Below are positions 1 to 41,596 of a DNA stretch of 49,380 nt, piece by piece; position 1 is the stretch's first letter; each line of letters begins with the position of its first letter. The DNA comes from Patescibacteria group bacterium. GTDB taxonomy: Bacteria; Patescibacteriota; Minisyncoccia; HO2-45-28. Made by a program: the position numbers and the translations under genes. The notes beneath the pieces are model-generated. The model saw only the letters and a list, made by a program, of their open reading frames with translations. It was not told where the DNA came from and ran no database searches. The stretch lies in assembly GCA_038064075.1 (NCBI GenBank), contig JBBTTU010000002.1:1-49380 (forward strand), given 5' to 3'.

Positions 1-924
1 CTCGTAAAACTGGAGCGGATTTTTTTAAATCAAGGGATTAATTTATACGCAAAGCTGGAACAGTTTAATCTTGGCGGCAGCATAAAGGACCGGCCGGCCT
101 TGATGATGATTGAAGAAGCTCTACACGAAGGAAAGATAAAACAAGGTGCTACTATTATAGAATCAAGTTCCGGAAATATGGGTATAGCTCTTGCTTACGT
201 TTGTTTACGTTACGGGTTAAATTTTATCGCTGTAGTTGATCCGCGAACAACGGAGACAAATGTAAAAATTTTAAAGGCACTGGGGGCCAAAATTGAAATT
301 GTTGACTGGCGTGGTAAAACCACCGGTAGTTATTTGGAAGCCCGATTTGAGCGAGTTCAGCAATTACTCAATGAAATACCGAAAAGTTTCTGGCCAAATC
401 AACACGCAAATGAAAATAATCCTCGGGCACATCACCGAACCATGGAAGAGATTAATGAGACGTTACGAGGTAAAATTGATTATTTATTTTGTGCCGCAAG
501 TACTTGCGGCACATTACACGGTTGCTTTGAATACATAAAGGAAAAGAATCTAAATACCAGAATAATAGTTGTTGACGCAGAAGGAAGTGTAATTTTTGGC
601 GGGACAAGCGGTAACCGCTTAATCCCCGGTCATGGTTCGGCTATACGGCCAGCAATTTACCGCGAAGGAATGGCAGACAAGTGTGTATACGTAAATGACG
701 CCGAATGTGTTGCTGGCTGCCGCCTCCTTCTGAAAGAAGAAGCTATACTCGCCGGCGGTTCTTCTGGCGCAATAGTCAGCGGATTTGCGAAAGCAAAGAC
801 AGATATTCCGAAAAACTCAAATGTGGTGATAATTTTACCAGATCGAGGCGAAAGATACCTGGATACGATATACAATCCTAATTGGGTCAGTAAAAATTTA
901 GGAGAGATTCCTTCGCTATTATGA
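1..924 (+). CDS. sbnA: PLP-dependent cysteine-synthase-fold enzyme, SbnA-like (2,3-diaminopropionate pathway); 5' end cut by window edge
   Basis: Frame 1 is open from base 1 (LVKLERIF...LEQFNLGGSIKDRPA), so the listed 100..924 ORF is only the part after an internal Met. It has the GGSIKDR PLP-lysine motif and an SSGNMG loop. ATGA stop/start overlap with an SbnB-like gene. Confidence 0.75.
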   Translation, partial: LVKLERIFLNQGINLYAKLEQFNLGGSIKDRPALMMIEEALHEGKIKQGATIIESSSGNMGIALAYVCLRYGLNFIAVVDPRTTETNVKILKALGAKIEIVDWRGKTTGSYLEARFERVQQLLNEIPKSFWPNQHANENNPRAHHRTMEEINETLRGKIDYLFCAASTCGTLHGCFEYIKEKNLNTRIIVVDAEGSVIFGGTSGNRLIPGHGSAIRPAIYREGMADKCVYVNDAECVAGCRLLLKEEAILAGGSSGAIVSGFAKAKTDIPKNSNVVIILPDRGERYLDTIYNPNWVSKNLGEIPSLL

Positions 925-1958
925 AAAGCAACGGAAGCCGAGACAAAAATAGCTTGCATATTATATCCGGTAGTGATGTAGGCAAACTGCTCTTGGATAA
1001 AGAAAAGGAACTCATCAAACTGGTTCGCGCTGCCTACATTGCTCATCAAAAAGGAAAAAGCGAGCTTCCGCACTCCGTTTTTCTTGAATTTCCGTCAAAA
1101 TCTCAGAATAGAATTATCGGATTGCCTTCGTATATCGATAAAACGGCTGGGATTAAGTGGATAGCGTCATTTCCAAACAATATTAAAAAAGGAATAGATC
1201 GTGCTTCGGCGGCAATTATTCTTAATTCTTTAAATACTGGCCGACCGTACGCAATTCTTGAGGGATCGATCATAAGTGCAAAAAGAACGGCGGCCAGCGC
1301 CGCACTTGCCGCGACAATTTTATCAAAAGACAAACACAATATAAAAGATATAGCCCTTGTCGGATGCGGTTTTATTAACTTTGAGATTTTTAAATTCCTT
1401 ACTTCCCAATTTCCTTCTTTGAAATCAGCTAATTTATTTGATCTTAATCGCAAGCGCGCCAGTCTTTTTTCTAACAGGATAAAATCTATCAGTAATGTTA
1501 AAATTAAAATCAGCCACACAATAGAAGAATGTCTCCAATCATCGAAGATCATATCGTTTGCGACCACTGCTTCAACCCCACACATAACGGCTAAATCAAT
1601 TTTGCCAAAGGAATCAATCATTCTTCATGTTTCGTTACGAGATATCGATCCTTATATTATAAAAAATAGTGTTAACATTGTTGACGATCTCATGCACGTG
1701 AACAGAGAAAATACAAGCATTCATTTGGCATCTAAGAAGTACGGCAATGCTAATTTTGTTACCGCTTCGCTTGGCGAACTTCTTCTTGGACAAAAGAAAC
1801 TTCCTGACTATCCGCGTCCAATCATTTTTTCTCCTTTCGGACTCGGAATTTTAGATATCCAATTAGCAAAATTTTTATATGAGCAGGCGATTAAAAAAGA
1901 TGCGGGAATCTTAATTAAAGACTTTATACCGCCAAATTGGCATGAAAGATCATACTAA
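921..1958 (+). CDS. sbnB: Ornithine cyclodeaminase/mu-crystallin family dehydrogenase, SbnB-like
   Basis: 345 aa. Contains AGIKWIASFPNN...RASAAIILN...EGSIISAKRTAASAALAA, which matches my memory of the SbnB signature. Translationally coupled to the upstream SbnA-like gene (ATGA at 921-924). Confidence 0.8.
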   Translation: MKSNGSRDKNSLHIISGSDVGKLLLDKEKELIKLVRAAYIAHQKGKSELPHSVFLEFPSKSQNRIIGLPSYIDKTAGIKWIASFPNNIKKGIDRASAAIILNSLNTGRPYAILEGSIISAKRTAASAALAATILSKDKHNIKDIALVGCGFINFEIFKFLTSQFPSLKSANLFDLNRKRASLFSNRIKSISNVKIKISHTIEECLQSSKIISFATTASTPHITAKSILPKESIILHVSLRDIDPYIIKNSVNIVDDLMHVNRENTSIHLASKKYGNANFVTASLGELLLGQKKLPDYPRPIIFSPFGLGILDIQLAKFLYEQAIKKDAGILIKDFIPPNWHERSY

Positions 1959-3360
1959 AAACAACTTGTTTAAGAATTTGCACGCATCCAGCGGGGCAAA
2001 AATTATTACAAAGTCCGTTCCGGGGCCAAAATCAATTGCGCTTCTAAAAAAGCAAAATGAGCTTGAAAGCAATAACAGGTCATATCCAAGAGAAATACCG
2101 ATTGCCCTTCAAAGAGGCAGAGGGGCAATTATAGAAGATGTGGATAGTAATAAGTTTATAGATTTTCTTTCTGGCTGTGGAATTTTTAATTTAGGGCATA
2201 ATAACCCTTTTATCACTGAAGCGATTAAAAACCACGACGATATCATTACTCAAGCAGTTGATTTTCCAACCAAGATAAGAATTAATTTTGTAGAGCGGCT
2301 TAATTCGGTGCTGCCTAAAACCATTCGCAATAAGATGAAAGTAAATTTTGGCGGGCCGACTGGTTCAGATGTTGTTGAAGCGGCTATTAAATTGGCGCGG
2401 ATAGTCACAGGCAGACACTCTATCATAGCTTTTCAGGGCGGCTATCACGGAATGACGATGGGTGCGTTAAGCGTAACCAGCAAGCTCTCGCACCGCAAAG
2501 TAGCTCCACCGCTTATTCCAGGAATACACTTTTTACCATTTTGCAGTTCATATCGTTGTCCTTTTGCTAATACTAATTCACCTTGTTCCGGCGAATGTAT
2601 GCGATATTTCGAGTTTTGTCTTGAAAATCCGTACTCCGGCATAGACAAACCAGCCGCCATTATTATTGAACCAATCCAAGGAGAAGGAGGAACTTACATA
2701 CCGAGCAACGGGTGGCTTGAAAGAATAACTGAAATAGCAAGAAAAAATGATATTCTTGTAATTTTTGACGAAATACAAACCGGTTTTTATAGAACAGGGA
2801 AAATGTTTGCCTTTGAACACACAGACGCGGATCCGGACATCATCACAATGTCAAAAGGCATTGGGGGCAATGGATACCCGTTATCCTTAATCCTGTACAA
2901 AAAAGAGCTTGATGTGTGGGAGCCCGGAACGCATATTGGGACGTTCCGCGGAAATCAAATCGCTATGGCGGCTGGCCTAGCGGCAATGGAATTCATTGAA
3001 AAGCATGATGTTTTGTCGCATGTCTTAGATATCAGCAACGAGATGAAGAGCAAGCTGGAAAAAATCAAGGAGTCATCGCAGTATATTGGAGACGTGCGTG
3101 GCATAGGTATGATGTTTGGCATTGAATTGGTAAAAGATAAAAACACAAAAGAACCCTTCCCTGAAGCAACTAAGTTATTGAGAAAATTGTGTTACGAAAA
3201 CGGACTGATTGTAGAAATCGGCGGATACTACAACAACGTTATAAGATTTTTGCCGCCGCTTACTCTCACAAAAGAAATCGCTGAAAATGGACTAGGTATT
3301 TTTGCCGATGCGAATAAAGCAATGGAAGTTTCTATTGCTTTACTGGATACACCGCGATAA
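1942..3360 (+). CDS. Class III PLP aminotransferase, diaminobutyrate-2-oxoglutarate transaminase-like
   Basis: 472 aa. Has the N-terminal ESNNRSYPREIPIAL..GRGAIIEDVDSNKFIDFLSGCGIFNLGHNNP pattern typical of EctB/PvdH-type DABA aminotransferases, and ITMSKGIGG carrying the PLP lysine. Overlaps the sbnB-like 3' end by 17 nt. Confidence 0.8.
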   Translation: MKDHTKNNLFKNLHASSGAKIITKSVPGPKSIALLKKQNELESNNRSYPREIPIALQRGRGAIIEDVDSNKFIDFLSGCGIFNLGHNNPFITEAIKNHDDIITQAVDFPTKIRINFVERLNSVLPKTIRNKMKVNFGGPTGSDVVEAAIKLARIVTGRHSIIAFQGGYHGMTMGALSVTSKLSHRKVAPPLIPGIHFLPFCSSYRCPFANTNSPCSGECMRYFEFCLENPYSGIDKPAAIIIEPIQGEGGTYIPSNGWLERITEIARKNDILVIFDEIQTGFYRTGKMFAFEHTDADPDIITMSKGIGGNGYPLSLILYKKELDVWEPGTHIGTFRGNQIAMAAGLAAMEFIEKHDVLSHVLDISNEMKSKLEKIKESSQYIGDVRGIGMMFGIELVKDKNTKEPFPEATKLLRKLCYENGLIVEIGGYYNNVIRFLPPLTLTKEIAENGLGIFADANKAMEVSIALLDTPR

Positions 3361-3853
3361 GTTGGCGAATAATCATATCGTTCCAGAAATTGATATGGGC
3401 CGGTTTGAAGTCAAACCAGACACGCATAAAGTCATCTCGCTCTAATTTTCGCAAGCCGCCAATTTCAGGGTCTTGTAAATAAATGTGGGTATTGTCAAGG
3501 CCGACTACTACCGAGTAATGTCCATCTGGAACTTCTTGGTCGCTATAATCTGAACGACCTCGGGTAAACCAGTTAACAATAACTGGCACGCGGCGGTCAA
3601 GCCACTTTTGAATGGAACCAAACGAAGCGTTATTTTCAATCTCAACCTTCAAACCGTAGAATTCAGCAGCTTTTTTAAGAGACATGTCATCAGTACCAAG
3701 GTCAGGATCACGATTAGAGACAACCGCCACTTCTTCTTCGCTTTTGTTAATGCCCCAATATTCAAACACCATTTTCAAGCTTGCCGGCCCACAATAACCG
3801 CCGTGAAGAGTTTCCTGAAAAGGTTTAATTGTGAGCAGATTTTTATTATTCAT
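3332..3853 (-). CDS. C39-like papain-fold cysteine peptidase domain protein (stand-alone)
   Basis: 173 aa. HGGYCGPASLKMV gives the nucleophile Cys context and DGHYSVVVGLD the His. No signal peptide and no ABC-transporter fusion. Convergent 29-nt overlap with the aminotransferase 3' end. Confidence 0.55.
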   Translation of the reverse strand: MNNKNLLTIKPFQETLHGGYCGPASLKMVFEYWGINKSEEEVAVVSNRDPDLGTDDMSLKKAAEFYGLKVEIENNASFGSIQKWLDRRVPVIVNWFTRGRSDYSDQEVPDGHYSVVVGLDNTHIYLQDPEIGGLRKLERDDFMRVWFDFKPAHINFWNDMIIRQLIAVYPVKQ

Positions 3854-3869
3854 TGGTTGATTTTAACAT

Positions 3870-5222
3870 TTAATGCTCATTGAGACAATATTTCGCTCTC
3901 TGCGATAAATAGAGAGCATCCTTCTTATTTTTCCCAATCGTTATAATTCCAATAATCGATCTATTCAGACTTATAAAAGAAATAATTATCCCTCTTTTAC
4001 GATTTTCAATCGGATAAAGAACGTCATGCAACCGCGCTAAAAGTTCTTCTGGCTTTTGAGTCGGCATGTTGTAACGAAACGAATCGTTAGAAATAACATA
4101 TGCGTTGCTTCCGCTGATACCAAGATAGGACATTATGTGATATACATGCGTGCCTCCGGTCATCCTGGCGTTGCTTTCAAGAACATATAAACCTCCGTCT
4201 TTACCAGCAGCAAAATCAACGTCAAATACTCCGCGGTACCCTTTTGAGTAAAGTTCATTACCTATTGTACCCATGCCAATTCTCATACTTGAATTTACGG
4301 AGTCGGGAATGATATCATTACTAAAAACAACGCCTTCAAAAGAGCCATTTCTAGTAACTTCTTGCCCGCAGTTATAATCAAAAATAAAACCCTTATCAGT
4401 TATGTGTCCTTCGCCCGATGGAAAGCCACCCCCAGTTGTTTTATCAACCGATATGAATTGTTCAACAACATATGGAGCGAAGTTCCATATAAGATCTGAT
4501 GCAAACAATTCGCGTAACCAATTCTTTATTTTACTCTCCGTGAATTTTTGAACTGCGTCATCATCTATAATTTTGACGCCCCAGCCGGATTCGCCGTTGT
4601 GAACTTTAATGACAAAACCGGCGCCGGCGTTCAAGAAAAAGGATATTGCTTTGGCGACATCAGCTTCGGTTTTACATATAAAGCCGATGGGGAGTTTGAT
4701 ATTCTTTCTCGGAAATAGATTTGCGACCATCTCTCGAAATCCATTCTTTGAATCTATTTCTCTTACCACATCAAGCGGATTTGTCGTTCTGGGTAAGTTA
4801 ACGACATGCCACCCAGCGATTCTTTCTTCCAAAAATCGAAGCAAGTTTAGGTAATCTTCCGTAGCAGAATAAGACGAAACTTTTACATCTTTATTTGATT
4901 GAAAAACTTGAATAAGAGCCTCTATCAATTCTGGATCATCAAGAATAGAATTGCATAAACGAACATCGGGATTTTTGGGCCACAAGTTTTTGATGTTTCT
5001 GTATCCCACTTTAGCAATGTTGTGTTTCAAAAGATCTTCTGGAATGGGAGTTGGAGTAATAATAATTTTATTATCTCCGCCCCAAAGTTGCCCTCTTTGA
5101 GAGAGATCTATTTCTTGCTGAACTCTATCTTGTTGGATAGCGTTGCCTAACGCTGCCCGCTCAAGTAAATTAGCGAAGGCCTCGGCTGTGTTGGCTATAA
5201 ATATTTCTTTAATACTTTGCAT
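3870..5222 (-). CDS. ATP-grasp family ligase (unknown substrate)
   Basis: 450 aa. GFVIKVHNGESGWGV and YVLESNARMTGG resemble ATP-grasp nucleotide and Mg-binding segments. Assignment is from motif memory only. Confidence 0.6.
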   Translation of the reverse strand: MQSIKEIFIANTAEAFANLLERAALGNAIQQDRVQQEIDLSQRGQLWGGDNKIIITPTPIPEDLLKHNIAKVGYRNIKNLWPKNPDVRLCNSILDDPELIEALIQVFQSNKDVKVSSYSATEDYLNLLRFLEERIAGWHVVNLPRTTNPLDVVREIDSKNGFREMVANLFPRKNIKLPIGFICKTEADVAKAISFFLNAGAGFVIKVHNGESGWGVKIIDDDAVQKFTESKIKNWLRELFASDLIWNFAPYVVEQFISVDKTTGGGFPSGEGHITDKGFIFDYNCGQEVTRNGSFEGVVFSNDIIPDSVNSSMRIGMGTIGNELYSKGYRGVFDVDFAAGKDGGLYVLESNARMTGGTHVYHIMSYLGISGSNAYVISNDSFRYNMPTQKPEELLARLHDVLYPIENRKRGIIISFISLNRSIIGIITIGKNKKDALYLSQRAKYCLNEH

Positions 5223-5224
5223 GT

Positions 5225-5260
5225 TTAAAAAGAAAGGGGGTGCACGGATTCTGCACCCCC
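5225..5260 (-). terminator. Rho-independent terminator-like hairpin downstream of the Ddl-like gene
   Basis: GGGGGTGCA (5236-5244) / TGCACCCCC (5252-5260) form a 9-bp GC-rich stem with a 7-nt loop. On the minus strand it is followed by TTTCTTTTT. Confidence 0.55.
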
Positions 5261-5264
5261 TATG

Positions 5265-6269
5265 TTACACCAGATATTCACGTTGCGCAGCCGTCAGAAT
5301 GATTCTTTCGATAAGGTCCTCAAAAGAACACTCTTCAAACGACGCCATCTTCGTGAGCGTGTTGTTCAGACCGTGAGTATTCGGCCCTACGCCAGGGTTA
5401 TAGTTCACTTCGAGCAGGTAGATTTTCCCGTCGCTGGCGATTCGGAAGTCCATGCGGGCGTAATCTCTGCACTCTGTGGCTATGAATATGCGCCTGACAT
5501 ATTTGGCAAGTAGCGCTGACGTTTCCGATGAAAGAACCGCTTCTGCCATCTGCTCTTTCTTTCCGCCCCACTTGTACTCATACGAGCGAATCTGCTCGTA
5601 GGGAGTTCTTGCTTCAGCGAAAAGGAATTCAAGCGTAGGAAGCACGTGGAGGTTCTGGCCGTTTCCAATGATGCCGACGGAAATTTCTCTGCCGACGACG
5701 AACGACTCGACAATTGCCGGCTGACGATAAAGACGGATCACTTCCTTCGTTTTGCGCTGTAAGGATTCCGAGTCTCTTACAACGCTGTCATGGCGAATCC
5801 CGATACTGGCTTCTTCCCTGATGGGCTTTACAATCAACGGAAACGCTAGGTTTTGACTCAGTGATCCCGTTCCATCTCGGAAGATTTGATAGGCCGGAGT
5901 TAGTACTCCGTTCGCCAGCGCAATCAGTTTTGTTTGTGCTTTGTCTAGTGTGATTGTCATGTTGTGCGCCGTCGCTCCCGTGAAAGGAATCTCCAGCGCC
6001 TCAAGCATAGTTGGTACCAACACTTCGTTACTGTTGGTGCCCCCGAACGCCTCGGCCAAATTGAGAACCAGATCGAAAGATGGTCTCTTTGCCTTCAGGT
6101 TCTCCCATAACGAGTAATTTGTCTCAAGGGTTTCAACTTCGTATCCCTTGGCTCGCAAGAGCGTTGCCACGATCGGGACAATGATTTGAATTTCCTGTTC
6201 GCAAACCATGTCCAGCTCGTCGCCCTTTTTTATCGTGGTGGCAACGTTGTAGAGAATCAAAATTCTCAT
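5265..6269 (-). CDS. D-alanine--D-alanine ligase-family ATP-grasp enzyme
   Basis: 334 aa. Has an MRILILYN pre-ATP-grasp N-terminus and YLLEVNYNPG (the E-x-N Mg site of Ddl/RimK-type enzymes). Visibly more GC-rich than its neighbours. Confidence 0.7.
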   Translation of the reverse strand: MRILILYNVATTIKKGDELDMVCEQEIQIIVPIVATLLRAKGYEVETLETNYSLWENLKAKRPSFDLVLNLAEAFGGTNSNEVLVPTMLEALEIPFTGATAHNMTITLDKAQTKLIALANGVLTPAYQIFRDGTGSLSQNLAFPLIVKPIREEASIGIRHDSVVRDSESLQRKTKEVIRLYRQPAIVESFVVGREISVGIIGNGQNLHVLPTLEFLFAEARTPYEQIRSYEYKWGGKKEQMAEAVLSSETSALLAKYVRRIFIATECRDYARMDFRIASDGKIYLLEVNYNPGVGPNTHGLNNTLTKMASFEECSFEDLIERIILTAAQREYLV

Positions 6270-6407
6270 CTTTTCTCCCTCCCTGTTTGATAACTTTCCT
6301 CACGATTAAAGAAAGTTAAAATTGTTAAAAAAACTTTCAAATCAAATTTTCTGTATTATACACCCTATTTCCAAAAATGTCAAATTACTTAGGTAATGTG
6401 CATACAC

Positions 6408-15637: not shown

Positions 15638-15855
15638 AATCTTATAATTATATTTATTTAATTTTTAATTTATTGTAGTAGATGTTTTTGGGTATAAGTG
15701 GATAAATTTTTTTATTATTGATTTTTATAAGTTTTTTCATTGATTTAATTTTAATTTCCTGTGAATAAATTCTGAATTATTTTATTATATTTTTATTTGC
15801 TTAAATTTATTTACTTTTAATCCCCAGATTTTAAACATATTATTTTATTATTTTT
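15638..15855. other. Candidate oriC (AT-rich dnaA-dnaN intergenic region with DnaA-box-like sites)
   Basis: 218-bp, extremely AT-rich spacer. AGTGGATAA (15697-15705) and TGTGAATAA (15760-15768) each match TGTGGATAA at 8 of 9 positions. Confidence 0.5.
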
Positions 15856-21904: not shown

Positions 21905-23764
21905 TTATTGTTTTTGGATTCCGCTTTCGGCAAATTCCTGTTTTGCTTTTTTAATCGCCAGCAATTGATGCGGGTCGGAAGTGATAATCTGGTCTTCGGT
22001 GTAGGAGCTGATTATTTTTATGGCGACATGCTTCAAACCGGCGAAGAAAATGCCTTCGCCGACATCCGATTCCAAAATAAGGAATTTTTCCTCGTCGGTC
22101 AGGTTAAAAGTTTTCTGGACTAGATCAATCGTCGCCGGCGACTGCTTTAAAAGCAGCTGCATTGAAGAGTTGGTGATAATCGGCACGCCGTAGGGCGACT
22201 GCAAAAAATCGCCGACATCCTGGGTGATGGTCGCGACTCCCAAGAAGTATTTTCTGGCCCGTTTGGCAATGCCGAAGAGGAACGAGGCGCCTTGCTCTTC
22301 TTTCATCAGCCACCAGGCCTCGTCAATGACCAAAAGCCTTTTTTTGACGTCTTTTCGGACAGCGTTCCAGATGTAGTGGATGATCAGATACATTGCGATC
22401 GGGCGCAATTCGTCTTCCATGTCGCGCACCGAAAAAACAATCAATTTTTTGTTGATATCAACATTGGTCGGCTGATTGATGAATCCGGCCCAGGTGCCTT
22501 GGGTGTATTTGCGCATTTTCTGGGCAAGGCCATCGGCTCCTTCCATATTGGCCAGAACTAATTCCAAATCCGAAAGAATCGGCGGTATTTTGGAGGCAAA
22601 ATCGGTGTCGGCGGTAATGTCGCGCGAGGCGTAAGTTTCGTTGATGGCCCGGTCCAGAATTGAATCTTCTTCCGGCGTCAGGCCGCCCAGCATTATCCGG
22701 AAAAGCCCGATCAGATTGATGATGTTTGAACGCAGAACATCGGCCGGATCTTCGTCTTCGCGGGCCGCCGGCAGTTCAAAGGGATTGATGTGATGAGTTG
22801 AGGTCAGAGAAATGTTGAAGTAGCGGCCGTCCACCGCTTCGGCGAGGTACTCGTATTCCCGTTCGGGATCAATGATGATGACATCGGTGTCAAACATCAG
22901 CGAGCGCAGTATTTCCAGCTTGGTGGCATAACTTTTGCCCGCGCCGCTTTTTGCGAAGATGACCGAATTGAAATTTTCAAGGCTGAAACGGTCAAAAAGG
23001 ATCAGGCTGTTATTGTGGCGGTTGACTCCGTAAAGAATGCCTTTGTCCGAAGTAAGATCAAAAGAAACAAACGGGAAAAGGCTTGAGATCGGCGAAGAAT
23101 TGAGGCGGCTGTTGATGCCGAGAATGTCGCGGCCGAGCGGGAAGACCGTGAGCGCCCCTTCGGTCTGCTGGAAAAGAGCCGGTTTGGCGTAAACCATTTT
23201 GGCTTCAAGCATTGAACGGATTTCGGATTCTTCGCGGTTCAGCTCCTCAAGATTATCGGCATAAACAGTGATGTAAAGGCCGAAAGAAAAAAGTTTTTCC
23301 TGAGCCTGTTGGAGTTTGTCGCGCAGTTCTTCAAGATTTTGATGGGCGGCATCCAGCATCGGGTCGCGGACCAGTCCTTTTTCTTCGCGCATATGGATTT
23401 GGGACTGGACTTCGGCCACTTTTTTTTGGAGCTGGCGCAAAACCGAAGCGGTATCCATCGGATGGATATAAATTGAAACGTCAAAAACCTTGTCCAAATT
23501 GATAATCGGGCTGAACCAGTTGATGGCCAAAAATTTAGGATAAGAAAAAACAAAAAGGGTTCGGGCGACCTTTTCGCCGATTTTGATGAAATTGGAGCTT
23601 ACTTCAAGGGCCGACGGCGCGATAATGTCTTTCAATTCCAAAACCGCGGCCTCGTAAATTTGCTCGGGCTGGACCGCGATTATCGCTTCTTCCTCTTTTT
23701 CTTTTTTACTGAAAAAATCTTTTAAAGCCATTTTATATTTTTTAGCCTCGTATTTGCGGGGCAT
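21905..23764 (-). CDS. virB4: VirB4/TrbE/TraC-type T4SS ATPase
   Basis: 619 aa. Walker A IFAKSGAGKSYATK and Walker B RLLVIDEAWW. N-terminal domain pattern ARTLFVFSYPKFLAINWFSPI..VSIYIHP is typical of Gram-positive VirB4. An alternative start is Met12 at 23731. Confidence 0.85.
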   Translation of the reverse strand: MPRKYEAKKYKMALKDFFSKKEKEEEAIIAVQPEQIYEAAVLELKDIIAPSALEVSSNFIKIGEKVARTLFVFSYPKFLAINWFSPIINLDKVFDVSIYIHPMDTASVLRQLQKKVAEVQSQIHMREEKGLVRDPMLDAAHQNLEELRDKLQQAQEKLFSFGLYITVYADNLEELNREESEIRSMLEAKMVYAKPALFQQTEGALTVFPLGRDILGINSRLNSSPISSLFPFVSFDLTSDKGILYGVNRHNNSLILFDRFSLENFNSVIFAKSGAGKSYATKLEILRSLMFDTDVIIIDPEREYEYLAEAVDGRYFNISLTSTHHINPFELPAAREDEDPADVLRSNIINLIGLFRIMLGGLTPEEDSILDRAINETYASRDITADTDFASKIPPILSDLELVLANMEGADGLAQKMRKYTQGTWAGFINQPTNVDINKKLIVFSVRDMEDELRPIAMYLIIHYIWNAVRKDVKKRLLVIDEAWWLMKEEQGASFLFGIAKRARKYFLGVATITQDVGDFLQSPYGVPIITNSSMQLLLKQSPATIDLVQKTFNLTDEEKFLILESDVGEGIFFAGLKHVAIKIISSYTEDQIITSDPHQLLAIKKAKQEFAESGIQKQ

Positions 23765-24428
23765 GTCCCCTTTCCAGCTCGCCCGGGTTGAACAATCCGT
23801 AATAAAGCTCTATCAATTCCTCGGTGTTTAAAGGAGCGGTTCGCACGCCGGCGCCGGCAATGGCGCCCGAAATCGTTTCCACTCTTTGCCAGAGCTGGGT
23901 TTTGTATTCTTCAAATTTTTCGTCTTCAAGTTTTTTGGCCGAAGCCGTCTCTTTTCTGCCGAAAAGACCGGTAAATATGCTCCCGATTCCTTTGGCGCCT
24001 CCGGCTAAAAAAGGCGGGACGAACGTCGCTACGATGTAGAAACTTTTGCGGACAATCTTGGTGGTTTCAACAAAAGACCGGACAAACTCAATATATTCGC
24101 GGGTCTGTATTTTTAACAGTTCATTGATTTGGTTTTTCTCGGCCGCCCGCAGGTTTTCCAGATACGGCTCAATATTGAGCCGGCGCGATTGAATCATGAC
24201 CTGAACCGAAAAATCAAGGGCGTTTAAGAAATTCTGATATTGACTGGTGATGGCTTCCTGTTCATCGGCCGACCGGAGCGCGAAATTCAAAGAAGAGGCC
24301 ATCAACACCATATGCATGTTGCCGTCTTCGGTAATCACGATGCCGTCGCGGATTTCGCGGATCGGAACAAAGTCTTGGGATGCTTTTCCTTTAATAGCGG
24401 GCATATTATTTGATTTTTTCTTTAACAT
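23742..24428 (-). CDS. T4SS-associated protein resembling the N-terminal region of Gram-positive VirB4-type proteins
   Basis: 228 aa. The QDFVPIREIRDGIVITEDGNMHMVLMASSLNFALRSADEQEAI pattern is shared with conjugation ATPase N-termini. No P-loop. Confidence 0.45.
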   Translation of the reverse strand: MLKKKSNNMPAIKGKASQDFVPIREIRDGIVITEDGNMHMVLMASSLNFALRSADEQEAITSQYQNFLNALDFSVQVMIQSRRLNIEPYLENLRAAEKNQINELLKIQTREYIEFVRSFVETTKIVRKSFYIVATFVPPFLAGGAKGIGSIFTGLFGRKETASAKKLEDEKFEEYKTQLWQRVETISGAIAGAGVRTAPLNTEELIELYYGLFNPGELERGHAPQIRG

Positions 24429-24816
24429 CCAGCGACCAGGCCAGATCTTTTAATTTGCTTTCGGTTATTTTCGGCAATTCCAATTTCGGCGTCTCTTTAT
24501 GAATTTCGGCGCCGGCCGGTTTGGCGGCTTTAGTTTCTTTTTTCTGCCAGATGTAAAGTTTGGAGGCGGTGTAATGAGAGAGCGCGCTCGCCGCGATTTT
24601 GATAAAAGGCTGGCCGTTTATTTTGTAAAAAGCCAAAGCCGCGGCGAATCCGGCGATCGGCAAACCCAATAAAATGAACCCAATCATTCCGGCAAAGACA
24701 TAAATGATAAATGCCGCCGCTCCTCCGCCCAAAAGATAAATAAACTGTTTCAGGGTCAGCGGCCCGAAAATTTTGTCTTCTACTTCTATAAATTGCGGGA
24801 CATTGAATTGGCGCAT
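24406..24816 (-). CDS. PrgI-family (VirB3-like) membrane protein
   Basis: 136 aa. N-terminal VPQFIEVEDKIFGPLTLKQFIYLLGG is followed by two TM helices. Confidence 0.55.
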   Translation of the reverse strand: MRQFNVPQFIEVEDKIFGPLTLKQFIYLLGGGAAAFIIYVFAGMIGFILLGLPIAGFAAALAFYKINGQPFIKIAASALSHYTASKLYIWQKKETKAAKPAGAEIHKETPKLELPKITESKLKDLAWSLDVKEKIK

Positions 24817-25369: not shown

Positions 25370-27664
25370 TTATTTGGGCAAGCCGAGCCGTCTCACTCCG
25401 TTGATTTTTATCCAAGCCGCGGCCGGACTGTTTGAATCTCGCAGTTTGTCAGTAATTTCTTTGATATCGTCTCCCATATTTTTTAATTTCAGAACAAATT
25501 CATCAAAAATTTTGCCTCCTCGCATAACAATGTCGCCAACCTGCTTAGTGTTTAATTTATTTAGCATGTCCATTACTCGGTAGCCGCCGCTGTCGCGTTG
25601 ATATATTGCCGCATCTTCCGAGATTTCGGCAAAATCAATTTTGTTGATAATCTCGGCGTATGTTTTGCCAATTCTTTGAGCCTGAAGCGGCAAAACGGAG
25701 AGAGCGTCATCCGCTCGTCCCGGGCGAAGAGTGTTGATGCTTGAAACAAAATCTCCGCCGCGCCCGATTTTATCATAAGACTTGGCAACTTTTTGTATTT
25801 CATCTTTCCGCCATGAATTGATAATGAAACCTTTAAGATTATCGGTCAAAGAATCAAAAGAAAGGATAATTTGATCTGTCGGCAGTTTAAGGATAAATTG
25901 GCCGTATTCGGAAGCAAATCTTTGCTGTCTTTCAGCCGAAGATCGGTCAAGGTTATTTCCGATGGTTGTTCGGATGGAACCAGCGTTGCTGTGATAAAGA
26001 GCGGCCAGATCAGTTGCCGATGTTTTTTCGCGGACAAAATTCTCCTGCATTTGTGCGGGAAGGCTGTTAAAGAATGTCGGCCGCTCGGTTTCGGGAGTGA
26101 GTTTAAACTGCTCGTAACGGATATTTTCTTGTTTTTTGCCGCCAAGTCGCGTTATAACATTTTCAATTTGCTGTTTTTGTTGTCGGGGGATAGCCGGATT
26201 CGTCAGTATTTGTGCCATTTCATTATCAGGTAAAGTGTTAATGATATTCTCTCGGGCAGTAAGACCCAGAGTTGACAGATAAGTGGCCCGATCCCGCGGC
26301 GAAAGGAGTTTGGCCGATTCCAGTTGCCGCGCCCGGATTTTTTCCAAACCGCCCAAAGTTTTGGCTTTTTCAAGCTGGCGCGCCACGGCTCCTCCCATCA
26401 TTCCGCCGACAAGAGGTATGTGCGAAAGCCCTCTGACAATCGCTCCTCTTCTTTCTTCAGTGGAAAGAAGCTCGGCTCCTCGGCCTATTCCTCTGCCCAC
26501 TCCTCGCGTTCCGAGTCCAATCGCTCCGCCGGCAAATCCGCCGATGTATTTTTGAGCGCCTTTTGCCAAACTCAATGTCATTGCGGCGCCGGCTCCGCCC
26601 ATAGATTTGGCGACAACAAGGCTGATAAAAAGCATCATAGCCAGCAAAAGATAATAAAGAACAACCGTCGGATTTGAAATAAAAGCTTTGCTGGTGTCTA
26701 TATTTGCGTCAAATACTTGGTTTGCGCCGTCCGAGATCATGTTTAAAGTAATGTTGAACAAAAAGAAAAAAGCGACCGGCCAGAATGATTGATTCAGCAA
26801 AGTGCTCCACCATTTATTGGCTTCGCCTGACAAGCCCGGCAAAACCCAGAACAGAAACGCGACCGGCGAAAGAATCATTAAAAACCAAAGGATGACTATT
26901 CTTGCCAAAAGAAGAATAACAACCGTTCCCAAAACGAATATCGCGACCAAGAGCAGAACGATATTTGCGGTCATAACGATCATTGCTCTCCTTAAAGCCG
27001 CGCTGATTGTATTTTCTTTAGTATCCAATTCTTTTTTTAGTTCTTCATATTTTTTTATTTCTTTTTCTGTTACGTCTGGGTTTTTAAACCTACCGCCATA
27101 AAGATCTTCTGAACTTCCGTATATTTTTAATTCCATTTTTCTAAATTCCTCCGCTTTTTTCTCGTAATCAGTGTCATTTCCAATGTCTTTTAATTCAAAA
27201 GACGCAAACATGGCATTTGGATTCAGTCCGGCTGCAAATTGTTCAGAAAATCTTATAGATTTATACTCTCCTTTTGGCATAAAAAGCGATGCCATGGAAT
27301 TGGCGGCAAAAATCACGTATTGAGAAGCCAGAAACGAGAAATTAATAAAGATAGCGGCAATAATAAGATTGGGCAGAAGTTTTTTGGCGCCGTAGCGTTC
27401 AATCTGAAGAATCGTCGCGATGGCGATTGTAAGGAGAATAAAAATAAAAAATAAATTGGCAGTGTCGCGGGCGATCGTCCAGCCGTTGTAAATTGCGGGA
27501 ATGTTGTAGATTTTGGGATCAAAAACATAAAGAATCACCCAATCAAAAAGCATGCCGGTAATGCCGAAAAACGTCGCAACCGCCTCCATAAGCCAGTAAA
27601 CTATCCAAGCCAGCGCGTTCAATACCGCGTTGCCTCCCCCGAATAAATTAAATAAAAATTCCAT
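25370..27664 (-). CDS. VirB6/TrbL-like polytopic membrane protein with long C-terminal domain
   Basis: Start placed at Met20 (MEFLFNLFGGG, ATG 27664), 5 nt after the upstream stop. The N-terminal half has multiple TM segments, then a Gly-rich stretch and a ~350-aa soluble tail. Confidence 0.55.
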   Translation of the reverse strand: MEFLFNLFGGGNAVLNALAWIVYWLMEAVATFFGITGMLFDWVILYVFDPKIYNIPAIYNGWTIARDTANLFFIFILLTIAIATILQIERYGAKKLLPNLIIAAIFINFSFLASQYVIFAANSMASLFMPKGEYKSIRFSEQFAAGLNPNAMFASFELKDIGNDTDYEKKAEEFRKMELKIYGSSEDLYGGRFKNPDVTEKEIKKYEELKKELDTKENTISAALRRAMIVMTANIVLLLVAIFVLGTVVILLLARIVILWFLMILSPVAFLFWVLPGLSGEANKWWSTLLNQSFWPVAFFFLFNITLNMISDGANQVFDANIDTSKAFISNPTVVLYYLLLAMMLFISLVVAKSMGGAGAAMTLSLAKGAQKYIGGFAGGAIGLGTRGVGRGIGRGAELLSTEERRGAIVRGLSHIPLVGGMMGGAVARQLEKAKTLGGLEKIRARQLESAKLLSPRDRATYLSTLGLTARENIINTLPDNEMAQILTNPAIPRQQKQQIENVITRLGGKKQENIRYEQFKLTPETERPTFFNSLPAQMQENFVREKTSATDLAALYHSNAGSIRTTIGNNLDRSSAERQQRFASEYGQFILKLPTDQIILSFDSLTDNLKGFIINSWRKDEIQKVAKSYDKIGRGGDFVSSINTLRPGRADDALSVLPLQAQRIGKTYAEIINKIDFAEISEDAAIYQRDSGGYRVMDMLNKLNTKQVGDIVMRGGKIFDEFVLKLKNMGDDIKEITDKLRDSNSPAAAWIKINGVRRLGLPK

Positions 27665-27669: not shown

Positions 27670-29214
27670 TTAAGTAGAAATAGACCCGGAAGAATTGGTG
27701 TTTTGGGATGGATTTTTGCAATCATTTAATTCTTTTTGGGTATCTGAAAGTTGTTTTTGCAGATCGGCCAGTTCCAAATTAGCCGCGCCTATTTCTTCGT
27801 CAGTGCGGATGTCTTGATGGGCTTGTCTCAACTGCCTTTGCAAAAATTCAAACTTTACCGGAGCTTCTTCGGTTTCAATCTGTTCTTTCAGGTCTTCAAT
27901 GGCTTCAATTTTCTTTTCAGAAGCCGTTATTTCGTTCTCAATCGGTTCCAGACGTTTTTTATTAAGATCGTCCGTTATAATTTTAATTTCATTTTTATTT
28001 TTTCCTTGGCATATTTCTATTTCTTCTCCGGTTGTTGAAATGACTTTTTTTACGACTTCAACCGACTCTTTTTTTATTTTGATGTAATCGTTTTCTCTTT
28101 CAATGATTTGATCCGCCAACGTCAAAAGATCCGGCTTCATATTTTCAATCAGAGGATTGATGCTTGGAGGCGGCGGCGCCTGATAGCCGGCCACGCCTCC
28201 TTTTCCGGTCGTCAGCAATTTGCCGACGCCGAGCCGCAACAGAGCCGAAAGTATTTTGTTGAAAGAATCGGCCAGTTCAAGCCCGGTCAGGTCAGTTTTA
28301 AAAACAGCCGAAAGTTTGTCCGCGATTACCGCGCCCGGCGTTGAATTTGTGTATTTTTCACAAGGCTGAGTCGGGTCCTGTTCTTCTAGAACTGTTTTTC
28401 CGGTTTCAGGGTCTTTATAATGATCTATTACTCCGGTTGGTATTCCGTCGGCGTCTTCTTTGTAAACCGGAACGGATCCGGCTTTAATTGACGTAGGATA
28501 CTTTTGACATGTCTTAAAGCCAAGAAATCCTTTGCCGGAATCAATTTCGGCTTTTACGCCGGCTGTTTTTTCAAGAGCTTTGGCGTGCATCTGGTCCATT
28601 TTTACCAGAAAAGTTCCGAAAGCATTGTTATTGGTCTGGGTTGAAATTGCCAGAAACGACTGCCAGCCGCCGGTTTGAAAATTGGCGTACATTTGTTCAA
28701 CATTCATTCTGATGTCGGCAAAAGTGCATTTGGGCGGGGGCGCGACAGCCGAAAAAAGATTAACGACCAGTTCAAACCGGAACGGACTGCAGATAAGATT
28801 CAACTGATCCGGCGTTAGCATTTTTTCCAGAAAAAGGCCGGACGCCAGGTTGCCCGAAGTTTTTAAAAATCCTTCAAAATCAGTGATAAAAAGAGGTTGG
28901 CCCTCAAAGCCGTTGTTAATCCAGTTGACAATGTCGTCTGTAAGCGTCCTTAATGCCGCATTTGCGATCGCAAGGCCGATTGATTCCAGTATTTCATTTT
29001 TCAAACAATCCCAGCTCATGCTGGGAGGAATAATAGAATAACAGCTTTGAGTCGTTGGAATTGCCACTGCATTGCCGGCTCCGGACGGAGTGGCGCCGGC
29101 GGGCAGGGCATAAGCTTTTTCGGCAATGGAAAAAAGAGCGATAAACGATCCAAGCTCGCTTATCAGCAAAAGGGCGGCGATATATTTTTTTGATTTTGAA
29201 AAGCTCATTGTCAT
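27670..29214 (-). CDS. Secreted protein with C-terminal coiled coil, unknown family
   Basis: 514 aa. Signal/TM N-terminus. C-terminal heptad-like E/K/Q-rich region. ATGA overlap with the upstream gene. Confidence 0.5.
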   Translation of the reverse strand: MTMSFSKSKKYIAALLLISELGSFIALFSIAEKAYALPAGATPSGAGNAVAIPTTQSCYSIIPPSMSWDCLKNEILESIGLAIANAALRTLTDDIVNWINNGFEGQPLFITDFEGFLKTSGNLASGLFLEKMLTPDQLNLICSPFRFELVVNLFSAVAPPPKCTFADIRMNVEQMYANFQTGGWQSFLAISTQTNNNAFGTFLVKMDQMHAKALEKTAGVKAEIDSGKGFLGFKTCQKYPTSIKAGSVPVYKEDADGIPTGVIDHYKDPETGKTVLEEQDPTQPCEKYTNSTPGAVIADKLSAVFKTDLTGLELADSFNKILSALLRLGVGKLLTTGKGGVAGYQAPPPPSINPLIENMKPDLLTLADQIIERENDYIKIKKESVEVVKKVISTTGEEIEICQGKNKNEIKIITDDLNKKRLEPIENEITASEKKIEAIEDLKEQIETEEAPVKFEFLQRQLRQAHQDIRTDEEIGAANLELADLQKQLSDTQKELNDCKNPSQNTNSSGSIST

Positions 29215-30251
29215 AAGGCGCTGGTTTGGTTTAATTGCTTGTCAATTTCAACGAATATATATCCGTCTTCGCCGGTTTTAAATTCAATGCCGTCAACCAG
29301 AAATTTGATTATGAGTCCCGAGAGCGCGGCGGAAGAACGTTTTACTTCCTGCTGATAATCATTTATGGCTAAAATGCCTTTGAAAGGATCGGCGCCGAAA
29401 TTGCTGAAAACGGCGTTGATCGCGGCAAAATTGTTGAAACTGCCGGCTATATCGGCGTGATAGGCGGCGTAATCCGGCGGAACCGCGAGGGCGCGCATTT
29501 TGGCCGCCGAATCAAGATAGGCTTTTTGATAATCTTTAAAAATGCTCAGTCCTTCATAATCTCCGTTTTCAGACGCCTCGGTCAAAATATCTTTTAAAAG
29601 CAGCATTTCATTCAATGAATTTTTTTTAAATCCCGATTTGATTATTGCGCCCAAAGCATTGGCGTAATTTTTGATGTTTTCTTTGGAATTGCTGGAGAGT
29701 TTGGCATCCTTGGCTGAAAATGAGCCGGTTGGCGCGGGACCGCTTGATTTTTGTTCTTTTTCAAGCCTGGAAATCAAGGAATTGTAAAGTTCTTCTTGAA
29801 TCTGGTTGTCGTCCAGTCCCTGATTTTTTAAAGAAACATAATCGCTAAAAAAATTGCGGGCAATGTCGGCGCTAAGAGTTGATTTTTTTTCTTCGGCGTT
29901 AGATTCGTCCGGCAGCCGCTTTTTGGCGGATTGAGTCGCGTCCAAAGAATCGGGCGGCGGCTTTAAAGGATTGCGGCCGAGCTTTATTTCCTGTCCGTCA
30001 GGCGCGCCGTCGCCGTCAGTGTCGGGATTGTTCGGGTTAGTTCCCCACAGCCGCTCTTCCCAGTCTTTAAGGCCGTCGCGATCCGAATCGGGATTTTCAT
30101 CAGCCGTTTTAGATACTGCGGCCGTCAGAATTTTTGGCTGATTTTGAATTCCGGGCTGCCGATTTCGGTAAATGAACCAAAATCCGCCTGCAACCACGGC
30201 CAAGGCTAAAATCAGACTTAAAATTATTTTTTTGTTCGCAAAAAATGTCAA
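29211..30251 (-). CDS. Membrane-anchored protein with thrombospondin type-3-like Ca-binding repeats
   Basis: TTG start and N-terminal TM helix. DSDRDGLKDWEE and DTDGDGAPDGQE are DxDxDG motifs. First gene of the operon. Confidence 0.55.
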   Translation of the reverse strand: MTFFANKKIILSLILALAVVAGGFWFIYRNRQPGIQNQPKILTAAVSKTADENPDSDRDGLKDWEERLWGTNPNNPDTDGDGAPDGQEIKLGRNPLKPPPDSLDATQSAKKRLPDESNAEEKKSTLSADIARNFFSDYVSLKNQGLDDNQIQEELYNSLISRLEKEQKSSGPAPTGSFSAKDAKLSSNSKENIKNYANALGAIIKSGFKKNSLNEMLLLKDILTEASENGDYEGLSIFKDYQKAYLDSAAKMRALAVPPDYAAYHADIAGSFNNFAAINAVFSNFGADPFKGILAINDYQQEVKRSSAALSGLIIKFLVDGIEFKTGEDGYIFVEIDKQLNQTSAL

Positions 30252-33541: not shown

Positions 33542-33570
33542 TTGACTTTCGGCCTTGGCAGGGCTAGTAT
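33542..33570 (+). promoter_or_regulatory. Sigma-70-like promoter TTGACT-17-TAGTAT
   Basis: TTGACT 33542-33547, a 17-nt spacer, then TAGTAT 33565-33570. Points at the LysM/M23 gene. Confidence 0.4.
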
Positions 33571-40687: not shown

Positions 40688-41596
40688 GTGCGACATAACG
40701 ATCTCCAAAAAATTTATAAGGAATTCCTGGCGTATCTGGAAATTGAAAAAGGCCGGAGCTTGAAAACGCTTGATAATTACAGCCGCTATCTGAATGTTTT
40801 TTTTAGTTTTGCCAAGATTGGCTCGCCGGCCGGCATCAACGAAGCTGTTTGCCGCCAGTTCCGTTTATGGCTTAATCGCAGGAGTCTTAAAAAAAAGACC
40901 CAGAATTATTATTTGATAGCCCTGCGCGGATTTTTAAGATATCTGACAAGGCGCGGAATTGAAAGTTTGCCGGCTGAAAAAATTGAACTGGCCAAAACGC
41001 CGGAGCGCCAGATTGATTTGATCAATAATGATGAACTGGAACGCCTGCTTTCTTCAGCCGGTGGTTCGGACCCAAAATCGCTTCGCGACCGCGCCATGCT
41101 TGAACTTCTTTTTTCCACCGGCTTGCGCGTCTCGGAATTATGCGCTTTGAACCGCGATTCAATCAGCGTCAAAAAAGGAGAATTCAGCGTCCGGGGAAAA
41201 GGCGATAAAGTTCGCGTTGTTTTTCTTTCGGACAGTGCTAAAAATGCTCTTGAAAATTGGTCTGATAAACGCGCTGATCTGAATCCGGCTCTTTTTGTCA
41301 ATTTTAAGCCCGGCCAAAAAGCGATTGATGAATCGGCCCGGCTTACTCCTCGCTCAATTGAAAGAATTATCAAACATTATTCTACCAAAGCCGGCATAAC
41401 CAAAAAAGTGACGCCGCACGTTATCAGACATTGTTTTGCAACCGACTTGCTTGAAAACGGAGCTGATTTGCGTTCGGTTCAGGAACTTCTGGGACATGCT
41501 AACATCGCAACCACGCAAATTTACACTCACGTAACCGATCGCCGGCTCCGCGAAATCCACCAAACTTTCCATGCCATAAAAAGAAAAACCGTTTAA
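40688..41596 (+). CDS. Tyrosine recombinase, XerC/XerD type
   Basis: 302 aa, GTG start. RDRAMLELLFSTGLRVSEL, HVIRHCFATDLL and LGHANIATTQIYTHV give the R..HxxR..Y catalytic set. Confidence 0.85.
   Translation: MRHNDLQKIYKEFLAYLEIEKGRSLKTLDNYSRYLNVFFSFAKIGSPAGINEAVCRQFRLWLNRRSLKKKTQNYYLIALRGFLRYLTRRGIESLPAEKIELAKTPERQIDLINNDELERLLSSAGGSDPKSLRDRAMLELLFSTGLRVSELCALNRDSISVKKGEFSVRGKGDKVRVVFLSDSAKNALENWSDKRADLNPALFVNFKPGQKAIDESARLTPRSIERIIKHYSTKAGITKKVTPHVIRHCFATDLLENGADLRSVQELLGHANIATTQIYTHVTDRRLREIHQTFHAIKRKTV

Follow-up and report, generated by a model that had tools for sequence, protein, structure and literature searches.

A three-gene core of two ATP-grasp ligases and a C39-like peptidase with diamino acid supply genes in Patescibacteria: a possible route to small peptides without nonribosomal peptide synthetases

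What would a bacterium with a minimal genome do with diamino acid genes that adjoin two ATP-grasp ligases and a cysteine peptidase? This question is raised by positions 1 to 6,269 of a 49,380-nucleotide stretch of DNA (contig JBBTTU010000002.1; the whole stretch is called the window below), a chromosome segment probably close to the replication origin of a groundwater bacterium of the Patescibacteria (candidate phyla radiation, CPR; Parcubacteria-like). A preliminary description of the window had seen six genes there and proposed a pathway independent of nonribosomal peptide synthetases (NRPS) in a genome that looked minimal. The host is indeed a CPR bacterium with a minimal genome, and the six genes lie where they had been placed. 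Our analysis suggests, with about an even chance of being right, that the region encodes a genuine pathway, NRPS-independent and non-thiotemplated, in which diamino or beta-amino acids are joined into a small peptide, together with a partner peptidase.

The first two genes are predicted to be bona fide SbnA/SbnB-type synthases of L-2,3-diaminopropionate (Dap). The sbnA-like gene (1..924, plus strand) encodes a pyridoxal phosphate (PLP) enzyme of the N-(2S)-2-amino-2-carboxyethyl-L-glutamate synthase type. The window edge removes its 5' end; the complete gene encodes 326 amino acids (aa) on the 52.6-kb parent contig (Hainich groundwater, locus L001). SbnA scored 409 bits against the NCBIfam model TIGR03945 (equivalog cut-off 350), 209 bits against Pfam PALP, above the gathering score, and 176-215 bits against the CysK, CysM, and CBS models, every one under its cut-off. 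The closest solved structure is S. aureus SbnA (5d84, 254 bits), followed by an O-acetylserine lyase (196 bits), and the PLP-lysine motif GGS-K-DRPA aligns with S. aureus SbnA. The sbnB-like gene (921..1958, plus strand) encodes an NAD-dependent dehydrogenase with the ornithine cyclodeaminase (OCD)/mu-crystallin fold. It scored 386 bits against TIGR03944 (equivalog cut-off 327), 107 bits against Pfam OCD_Mu_crystall, above the gathering score, and no more than 110 bits against OCD and alanine-dehydrogenase models; S. aureus SbnB (4m54) is its closest solved structure, and CmnK was also matched. Since both proteins score above the NCBIfam equivalog cut-offs, they are not ordinary CysK or OCD enzymes. 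The SbnA/SbnB-like identity proposed earlier is thus supported, and a grouping with ordinary cysteine synthases and OCDs, the outcome that had been weighed against it, is ruled out by the NCBIfam scores and the PDB matches.

Staphyloferrin B synthesis shares this two-enzyme L-Dap pathway at the equivalog level; in the window the two genes are translationally coupled, with the sbnA stop and the sbnB start sharing ATGA at 921-924 (read directly in the sequence). The users of Dap are different, however. Staphyloferrin B is made with an NRPS-independent siderophore (NIS) synthetase, and capreomycin and viomycin (CmnB/CmnK) with an NRPS, whereas the window has neither. Profile searches covered 37 of the 42 window open reading frames (ORFs) with a length of 120 aa or more. 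The scan did not extend to shorter ORFs or to 47.7-49.4 kb, and it did not take in all of 25871..26233, 33555..34730, and several overlapping shadow ORFs. Neither an NRPS nor an IucA/IucC-type synthetase turned up in these 37 ORFs, in the 3-kb left flank on the parent contig (where three ORFs matched no NCBIfam model), or among the recurrent neighbor families of related loci. The earlier statement that such synthetases are absent therefore holds for the scanned ORFs and the left flank, and an NIS siderophore cluster of the staphyloferrin B type was rejected. The dapdiamide pathway (DdaA/DdaB) is comparable by description, in that it combines Dap with an ATP-grasp enzyme, DdaF.

The third gene (1942..3360, plus strand) overlaps sbnB by 17 nt (1942-1958) and encodes a class-III aminotransferase of the 'dat' (diaminobutyrate:2-oxoglutarate transaminase) family (Pfam Aminotran_3, 321 bits, above the gathering score). 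It had been described as a 2,4-diaminobutyrate (DABA)-type enzyme. This was supported at the level of the 'dat' subfamily (TIGR00709, 433 bits; cut-off 401.6), but the protein fell below the specific DABA aminotransferase (DABA-AT) and EctB equivalog models (PRK06938, 491 against 671; PRK06931, 427 against 753; EctB, 377 against 552). EctB, GABA-AT, and archaeal racemases are its neighbors in the PDB, each with some 250-270 bits. The protein might conceivably be a class-III-fold racemase that feeds a D-amino acid to the Ddl-like ligase described below, although racemase models of the same fold scored 262-290 bits, about 200 lower than the DABA transaminase models.

An operon on the minus strand converges on these genes. 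It begins with a Ddl-fold ATP-grasp ligase gene (5265..6269), continues with a 450-aa ATP-grasp ligase gene (3870..5222), and ends with a C39-like peptidase gene (3332..3853), the 3' end of which overlaps that of the aminotransferase gene by 29 nt. The convergence, the ATGA, and the 17-nt overlap had all been noted before and hold. The intergenic gaps are 16, 42, and 107 nt. Upstream of the Ddl-like gene is a promoter-like site (6355..6383, minus strand), so called only for its match to the consensus, a perfect TTGACA-17-TATAAT (12/12). A GC-rich hairpin with a T run (5235..5261, minus strand; 10-pair stem with seven G-C pairs) lies in the 42 nt that separate the Ddl-like stop from the 450-aa ligase start. 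It may be an attenuator or partial terminator that perhaps sets the ratio of the two ligases.

The Ddl-like protein (334 aa) has the Ddl/VanA fold and matches Pfam Dala_Dala_lig_C (PF07478, 93 bits, above the gathering score), but it fails the Ddl models of NCBIfam (NF002378, 139 against 243; TIGR01205, 133 against 245.65) and is far under all Van models. Aligned to E. coli DdlB, whose numbering is used here, it retains E15, K97, K144, K215, R255, D257, E270, N272, and L282, and thus shares the ATP, Mg, and catalytic residues and the Glu15 equivalent with DdlB/VanA. There is an 11-residue insert ahead of E15. The D-Ala-binding set of DdlB (Glu15, Ser150, Tyr216, Ser281, and Leu282) is not kept whole, as three of its members are replaced: S150A, Y216W, and S281G, together with Y210R, are invariant in 14 of 14 aligned family members. 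The failed Ddl cut-offs and these three replacements argue that the protein is not a normal D-Ala-D-Ala ligase. It appears instead to be a distinct ligase, tightly conserved at about 60% identity between CPR classes, with a nucleophile site unlike that of a D-Ala-D-Ala ligase. It also differs from DdlB/VanA in being encoded with a PGM1-type ligase and not in a dcw/mur context, and every Ddl-like gene that we examined adjoins the 450-aa ligase gene. This pairing, the missed cut-offs, the three replacements, and two copies described below (one frameshifted, one on an integrase-flanked island of a Devosia-like genome) are indirect evidence that the gene is not the only bona fide Ddl of the organism, an outcome that had been named as a refutation of the proposed pathway. 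No mur or ddl gene was found elsewhere among the 37 scanned window ORFs.

The Pfam families expected for the other proteins (PALP, OCD_Mu_crystall, Aminotran_3, Dala_Dala_lig_C, and Peptidase_C39_2) were all matched above threshold, while the 450-aa protein had only a sub-threshold match (ATPgrasp_ST, 26.5 against 31.4), and no NCBIfam model named it. Its AlphaFold2 model was built from an alignment of 24 homologs (pLDDT 92). In Foldseek searches the top match was PGM1 (3wvq/3wvr; E 1e-22, TM 0.76-0.79, full length), followed by the Streptomyces ATP-grasp peptide ligase 8ynd and BesA (8yi6), with carboxylases of the same superfamily far lower. BesA (5e-6) and PGM1 (3e-4) were also matched in sequence, and PF18604 (PreAtp-grasp) is annotated on several homologs. 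K159, K206, E254, D336, E349, N351, and R353 are invariant in the 24 homologs. The full-length fold match to PGM1, 8ynd, and BesA together with the weak sequence matches marks it as a stand-alone amide ligase of the PGM1/BesA type. It is an ortholog of neither, as the identity to PGM1, 8ynd, and BesA is only 15-18% and the BesA equivalog model gave 27.5 bits against a cut-off of 750.

PGM1, 8ynd, and BesA share with the 450-aa ligase the whole fold, including the pre-ATP-grasp N-terminal part, and they are stand-alone enzymes that form amides through acyl phosphates without a thiotemplate. PGM1 is the pheganomycin peptide ligase, which attaches a non-proteinogenic amino acid to ribosomal peptides (PMC8939145), and BesA is a gamma-Glu-propargylglycine ligase. 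Unlike the PGM1 and BesA systems, the present ligase is found in CPR hosts and has no precursor-peptide gene and no polyketide, amidino, or halogenase partners; its partners are the Ddl-like ligase and the C39-like peptidase. The catalytic ATP-grasp residues are intact in both ligases, which are the only plausible amide-bond formers in the cluster. The earlier view of them as the condensing enzymes is likely to be right.

The last gene of the operon encodes a clan-CA cysteine peptidase of 173 aa. It passes the cut-offs of PF13529 (Peptidase_C39_2, 54.3 against 24) and PF03412 (Peptidase_C39, 41.3 against 22), and Q13, C21, H112, and D128 are invariant in 20 homologs, so that the C39-like family call stands. 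The peptidase is not fused to a transporter in any locus, as had been noted for the window. In sequence, its best PDB match is the pseudomurein endoisopeptidase PeiR (6.7e-6), ahead of the C39 domains of peptidase-containing ATP-binding cassette transporters (PCATs). In fold, the C39 domains of PCAT1, ComA, and LahT and PeiR are about equal, with a TM of about 0.65. Lower matches are staphopain, a phytochelatin-synthase-like enzyme, and CtaG (E about 1e-4), a papain-like ligase. The fold and the Gln/Cys/His/Asp set are thus common to PCAT C39 domains, PeiR, and the window peptidase. Unlike the PCAT domains, the window peptidase has no ABC transporter attached and no detectable leader peptide nearby, and it is predicted to be cytoplasmic; no signal peptide or transmembrane segment is visible in its sequence.

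To place these genes in a wider context, we used one scan of 185,579 species genomes, which found 153 relatives and from which 80 loci were kept, plus exact-protein look-ups. The core order Ddl-like ligase, 450-aa ligase, C39-like peptidase recurs in about 29 non-redundant loci, nearly all from Patescibacteria, and spans Parcubacteria and Microgenomates lineages. Ligase orthologs above about 205 bits are almost always in this order, whether the ligase identity is as high as 77% or as low as 30%. When every ORF within 7 kb was clustered without bias in the 29 non-redundant loci, only seven recurrent families emerged: the 450-aa ligase (29/29), the Ddl-like ligase (27/29), the C39-like peptidase (26/29), the aminotransferase (12/29), a KamA-type radical-SAM aminomutase (12/29), SbnB (10/29), and SbnA (9/29). 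The KamA-type gene is not in the present window; it scored 233 bits against TIGR03822, below the cut-off. In 53 loci of a paralogous ATP-grasp clade, sbnA/sbnB, the aminotransferase gene, and the KamA-type gene were never found (Fisher p about 1e-5 to 6e-7, for loci that are phylogenetically related and not independent). The accessory genes have at least five arrangements relative to the core, among them convergent (as in this window), divergent upstream, and co-directional downstream. The genes thus recur together in several arrangements and beyond chance, in agreement with the proposed co-location. The six-gene cluster of the preliminary description is real and recurrent in relatives, but its functional unit is a three-gene core with interchangeable SbnAB, aminotransferase, and KamA modules that are facultative.

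The members of the cluster have diverged to different extents. In loci whose 450-aa ligase is 30-37% identical to that of the window, the median identities to the window proteins are about 65% for the aminotransferase, 61% for the C39-like peptidase, 60% for the Ddl-like ligase, 53% for the KamA-type protein, 43% for SbnA, and 32% for SbnB. On a neighbor-joining tree of the ligase, accessory content is patchy and has no clean split, and a link between accessory genes and ligase phylogeny was therefore rejected. The paralogous ATP-grasp clade (Gottesmanbacteria and others) was of no use for assigning function, because its neighbors (VirD4-like, TsaD, and Idi-like) are lineage synteny only.

The peptidase also occurs outside the operon. 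Its family comprises 2154 clusters, compared with 314 for the Ddl-like ligase and 134 for the 450-aa ligase; it is a large CPR family, 60-85% identical, that is also found alone. On four long contigs, close homologs of the peptidase (67-79% identity) are encoded without any ATP-grasp gene (L089 8001-8504, L090 8001-8516, L091 8001-8525, and L098 8001-8522), each within 1 kb of a NUDIX gene (4/4). NUDIX-box ORFs are rare in the background, with 12 per 1.31 Mb in 80 loci. The NUDIX genes are not orthologs of each other, since their mutual identity is 25-35%. Other neighbors are HAD and Peptidase_S51 genes and, once and directly upstream, an S66 gene (LD-carboxypeptidase LdcA/MccF-like), which suggests that these sites are 'house-cleaning' or small-peptide hydrolase islands in CPR genomes. 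Since C39-like copies exist without ligases, while the Ddl-like gene is always beside the 450-aa ligase gene, the ligases depend on or profit from the peptidase and not the reverse. Trimming, immunity, and maturation had been considered as roles of the peptidase. We keep a hydrolysing or trimming role as a proposal, but a role purely in pathway maturation or immunity is unlikely because the peptidase is widespread, very conserved, and also found without the ligases.

Several loci carry damaged or rearranged versions of the core, one of the signs that the operon is accessory; its settings outside CPR, described further below, are another. In one lineage the Ddl-like gene is frameshifted (L003 1336-2341, also L004 and L005; +1 after ...LEFLF), with identical DNA across three samples, and the cluster may be decaying there. 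These loci lack sbnAB and the aminotransferase gene and have DUF6922/AbiEii and other genes instead. In two further loci, transposases (DDE_Tnp_1; Y1_Tnp) stand in place of the C39 gene or of most of the Ddl-like gene (L094 3324-5030 and L097 4898-5980); L097 has a second C39-like paralog 5 kb downstream. In a 595-kb contig of a metagenome-assembled genome (MAG), a major facilitator superfamily (MFS) transporter gene is divergent from sbnA (L006/L012 15576-16754). It is the only candidate exporter beside any version of the cluster and is not recurrent.

Relatives outside CPR were also found. A Devosia-like MAG (L096 88-6955) has overlapping genes for the Ddl-like ligase and a 430-aa ligase with a phage-type integrase gene alongside, a full-length KamA aminomutase that passes the KamA family cut-off, a DIOX_N 2-oxoglutarate-oxygenase-like gene, and no C39-like gene. 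Accessory small-molecule clusters typically have this layout. The cultured Sulfitobacter aquimarinus (L018 7545-12349) encodes a 428-aa ligase homolog among GNAT, AAT/C45-type Cys-Ntn acyltransferase-like, and methyltransferase genes, and it could be a tractable entry to the ligase family.

How might these enzymes work together? In the assembly that we favor, SbnA and SbnB would convert O-phospho-L-serine and glutamate into L-Dap and 2-oxoglutarate. The DABA-type aminotransferase would provide a second omega-amino block, L-2,4-diaminobutyrate (Dab) or similar, and could regenerate the glutamate used by SbnA from the 2-oxoglutarate freed by SbnB. In relatives, the KamA-type aminomutase would supply a beta-amino acid. 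The Ddl-like ligase would hold the amino group of the acyl donor with its Glu15 equivalent, phosphorylate the carboxylate, and join it to an amine other than D-Ala. The fast-evolving PGM1-type ligase might then add a further residue or acyl unit to give a di- or tripeptide-sized cationic product. Finally, the C39-like enzyme, which resembles PeiR, might hydrolyse or trim unusual and possibly omega-linked amide bonds, with turnover, proofreading, or deprotection (as in gamma-glutamyl protecting-group pathways) as candidate roles. A small cationic di- or tripeptide would be the most economical product, and it may serve as an antibiotic, metal binder, solute, or host-interaction factor.

Other pathways offer partial parallels. 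In mycosporine synthesis, the larger ATP-grasp enzyme MysC and then the Ddl-like ligase MysD attach two amino acids without an NRPS. The likeness is one of logic only, by description, and the 4-deoxygadusol genes (MysA/MysB) are not in the cluster. Closthioamide assembly with CtaD and CtaG also uses an ATP-grasp ligase and a clan-CA cysteine enzyme, is NRPS-independent, and incorporates beta-amino-acid or diamine units (PMC7183216, PMC12865890). However, it is thiotemplated and needs peptidyl carrier proteins, and the window peptidase is nearer to the C39 domains and PeiR than to CtaG. No transporter, carrier protein, or unknown family was recurrent within 7 kb in the 29 loci. A closthioamide-like reading was rejected for want of a recurrent carrier-sized family, and the peptidase as a bacteriocin-exporter C39 domain because it is unfused in all loci and no ABC exporter or precursor recurs. 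A comparison of 31 loci found no conserved ORF of 12-80 aa inside the clusters or up to 1.5 kb from them. We thus also rejected a ribosomally made, post-translationally modified peptide (RiPP) of the graspetide type; the CPR graspetide loci in the literature differ, as the CPR graspetide branches of Makarova et al. have other partners (PMC8939145). A known anti-phage defense system was rejected as well, since none of the six proteins matched a defense family in PADLOC, and a phage or mobile-virus origin was rejected because no copy or relative was found on viral contigs.

Several points weigh against a dedicated peptide pathway. The order and polarity of the ligations, the substrates, and the product are deduced from the kinds of enzymes present. 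Many loci consist of the core alone with no supply module within 9 kb, and Dap is therefore not obligatory. No exporter recurs. The DABA-AT step presupposes aspartate semialdehyde, the usual DABA-AT substrate, in the host. The ligase families are much smaller than that of the peptidase, which is also found by itself among NUDIX, HAD, and S66 genes, so the primary substrate of the peptidase exists in cells without the ligases. Moreover, the Ddl-like, C39-like, and aminotransferase proteins are 57-65% identical where the 450-aa ligase and SbnB are at about 32%, a pattern more typical of a fixed cellular substrate than of secondary metabolism. Rather than a secondary-metabolite pathway, the core might be a CPR-specific tagging system, in which short non-ribosomal tags of diamino or beta-amino acids are written on a conserved cellular target and erased from it. 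This target would be the terminus of a protein or peptide, or else a cell-wall precursor linked to a nucleotide. Of the two near-invariant proteins, the Ddl-like ligase would be the writer and the C39-like (iso)peptidase the eraser, and the fast-evolving PGM1-type ligase would set the specificity. The widespread stand-alone C39-like genes of the NUDIX and hydrolase islands would serve to erase or recycle linkages of this kind and would have come from hosts or neighbors. We regard this tagging system as doubtful.

There are other explanations as well. The cluster could modify ribosomal products, with the C39-like enzyme cleaving off a leader or a protein end and the PGM1-type ligase capping the new terminus with a Dap, Dab, or beta-amino-acid unit, or with a dipeptide made by the Ddl-like ligase, in the manner of pheganomycin or of RimK/TTL tailing. 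PGM1, the nearest structural relative of the 450-aa ligase, does act on ribosomal peptides (PMC8939145), and the peptidase shares its fold with the PCAT-transporter peptidases that remove double-glycine leaders. The very high conservation of the Ddl-like and C39-like proteins would suit a conserved macromolecular substrate, and the C39-like protein is widespread by itself. Such a hybrid ribosomal/ATP-grasp scheme nevertheless seems unlikely to us. The conserved small ORF and the recurrent unknown family that might encode a substrate are both missing from the ranges searched above, the gaps of the window operon are only 16, 42, and 107 nt, the sequence of the peptidase is closer to that of PeiR, an isopeptidase, than to those of the PCAT C39 domains, and the stand-alone C39 copies lie among small-molecule hydrolases and not among RiPP genes. 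Another explanation is cell-wall chemistry, in which the ligases would build or rebuild a stem-peptide or cross-bridge element containing diamino acids and the peptidase would be a cytoplasmic muropeptide peptidase. PeiR, the best sequence match of the peptidase, is a pseudomurein endoisopeptidase, diamino acids are cross-linking residues of peptidoglycan, one of the ligases has the Ddl fold, and the window organism has PBP1, YkuD, and M23-LysM genes. An S66 LD-carboxypeptidase-like gene directly precedes one stand-alone C39 gene, and another is 5 kb from the operon in L092. Yet none of the genes that recur around the operon encodes a Mur ligase, MraY, a Fem-type protein, or a flippase, S150, Y216, and S281 of the D-Ala site are replaced and the Ddl cut-offs missed, and all the proteins look cytoplasmic. 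The operon is also sporadic (about 30 of the 80 loci kept, from 153 relatives among 185,579 species genomes), frameshifted in one lineage, cut by insertion sequences in others, and part of an integrase-flanked island in the Devosia-like MAG. A cell-wall function is thus improbable.

Alternatively, the product might be a polymer. One ligase would prime and the other extend iteratively a poly-diamino-acid as a store or capsule-like polymer, with the C39-like enzyme as the depolymerase, as in the pair of cyanophycin synthetase and cyanophycinase. The pairing of a synthesis enzyme with a hydrolase is the classic layout of such systems, and RimK is an iterative ATP-grasp enzyme. CtaD of closthioamide synthesis also acts iteratively (PMC7183216), and homopolymers of Dap and Dab occur in nature (PMC4668381). 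However, no indication of iterative action was seen in the ligase sequences, and the core-only loci have no dedicated monomer supply. To our knowledge, the synthetases known for poly-Dap, poly-Dab, and poly-Lys are membrane enzymes of an NRPS-like kind, and cyanophycin synthetase cannot do without its fused Mur-ligase domain; Pfam and NCBIfam searches found neither here. A polymer is thus quite improbable. Finally, the two halves of the cluster could be unrelated units, with sbnA, sbnB, and the aminotransferase gene serving another need for Dap and the ligase operon lying beside them by chance. The core is often without Dap genes, and in the window the halves are convergent and have no common transcript. 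Against this, 10 of the 29 non-redundant loci have sbnA/sbnB no more than 9 kb from the core, compared with none of the 53 paralog loci, and the aminotransferase gene always lies directly after the C39 gene. Because convergent, divergent, and co-directional arrangements all occur, proximity was probably selected and not inherited as synteny, and we consider a chance association very improbable.

The rest of the window carries genes of other kinds. Annotated genes include pilB, ruvB, yebC, ruvC, a class-A penicillin-binding protein gene, dnaN, dnaA, yidC, jag, a type IV secretion system-like block, ksgA, uvrD, an M23-LysM peptidase gene, comM, and genes for PNPase, an NYN-domain protein, a XerC-like integrase, four tRNAs, a CCA-adding enzyme, a YkuD L,D-transpeptidase, and an IS200-like transposase. 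dnaN and dnaA are on the minus strand at 14534-17214, where the G+C content goes down to 0.33 (14-17 kb), and the replication origin probably lies in this region, some 8 kb away from the cluster. The minus-strand block at 19031-30251 has mostly unknown genes, including a VirB4/TraG-like ATPase (21905..23764), a PrgI-like protein (24406..24816), very large unknown proteins (783 and 514 aa), and a bacterial TSP3-repeat protein (29211..30251); it looks like a type-IV-secretion or conjugation-like apparatus. At 40688-49380, the XerC-like integrase gene (40688..41596) is followed by tRNA-Arg, tRNA-Pro, tRNA-Ala, tRNA-Pro, and the CCA-adding enzyme gene, and the YkuD gene (45353..46150) and the IS200-like transposase gene (46334..47011) lie in the same segment. 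From 42 kb the G+C content falls to 0.33-0.37 and the GC skew climbs sharply. This end of the window may be an integrated or recently rearranged segment.

Free-standing ATP-grasp ligases that use Dap have precedents, and the parts of the cluster are all of known superfamilies. What appears to be new is the combination of a Ddl-fold ligase with an A/W/G pocket, a PGM1-type ligase, and a stand-alone C39-like enzyme, with interchangeable supply modules and concentrated in CPR; we found no description of this gene combination, or of Dap in CPR, in the literature. The two ligases and the peptidase form a compact enzyme set, in which the Ddl-fold ligase has a rebuilt pocket and the C39-like enzyme is putatively cytoplasmic. 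If the proposed assembly is correct, it would be a new NRPS-independent route to peptides of Dap, Dab, or beta-amino acids with new ligase specificities for biocatalysis, and a cysteine peptidase family that comprises over 2,000 sequence clusters from uncultured bacteria would gain a function. CPR genomes are very small and have little biosynthetic capacity, and an outlay of six or seven genes on non-proteinogenic basic amino acids is unexpected in them. The cluster probably has to do with the way in which these episymbionts handle hosts, metals, or their envelope.

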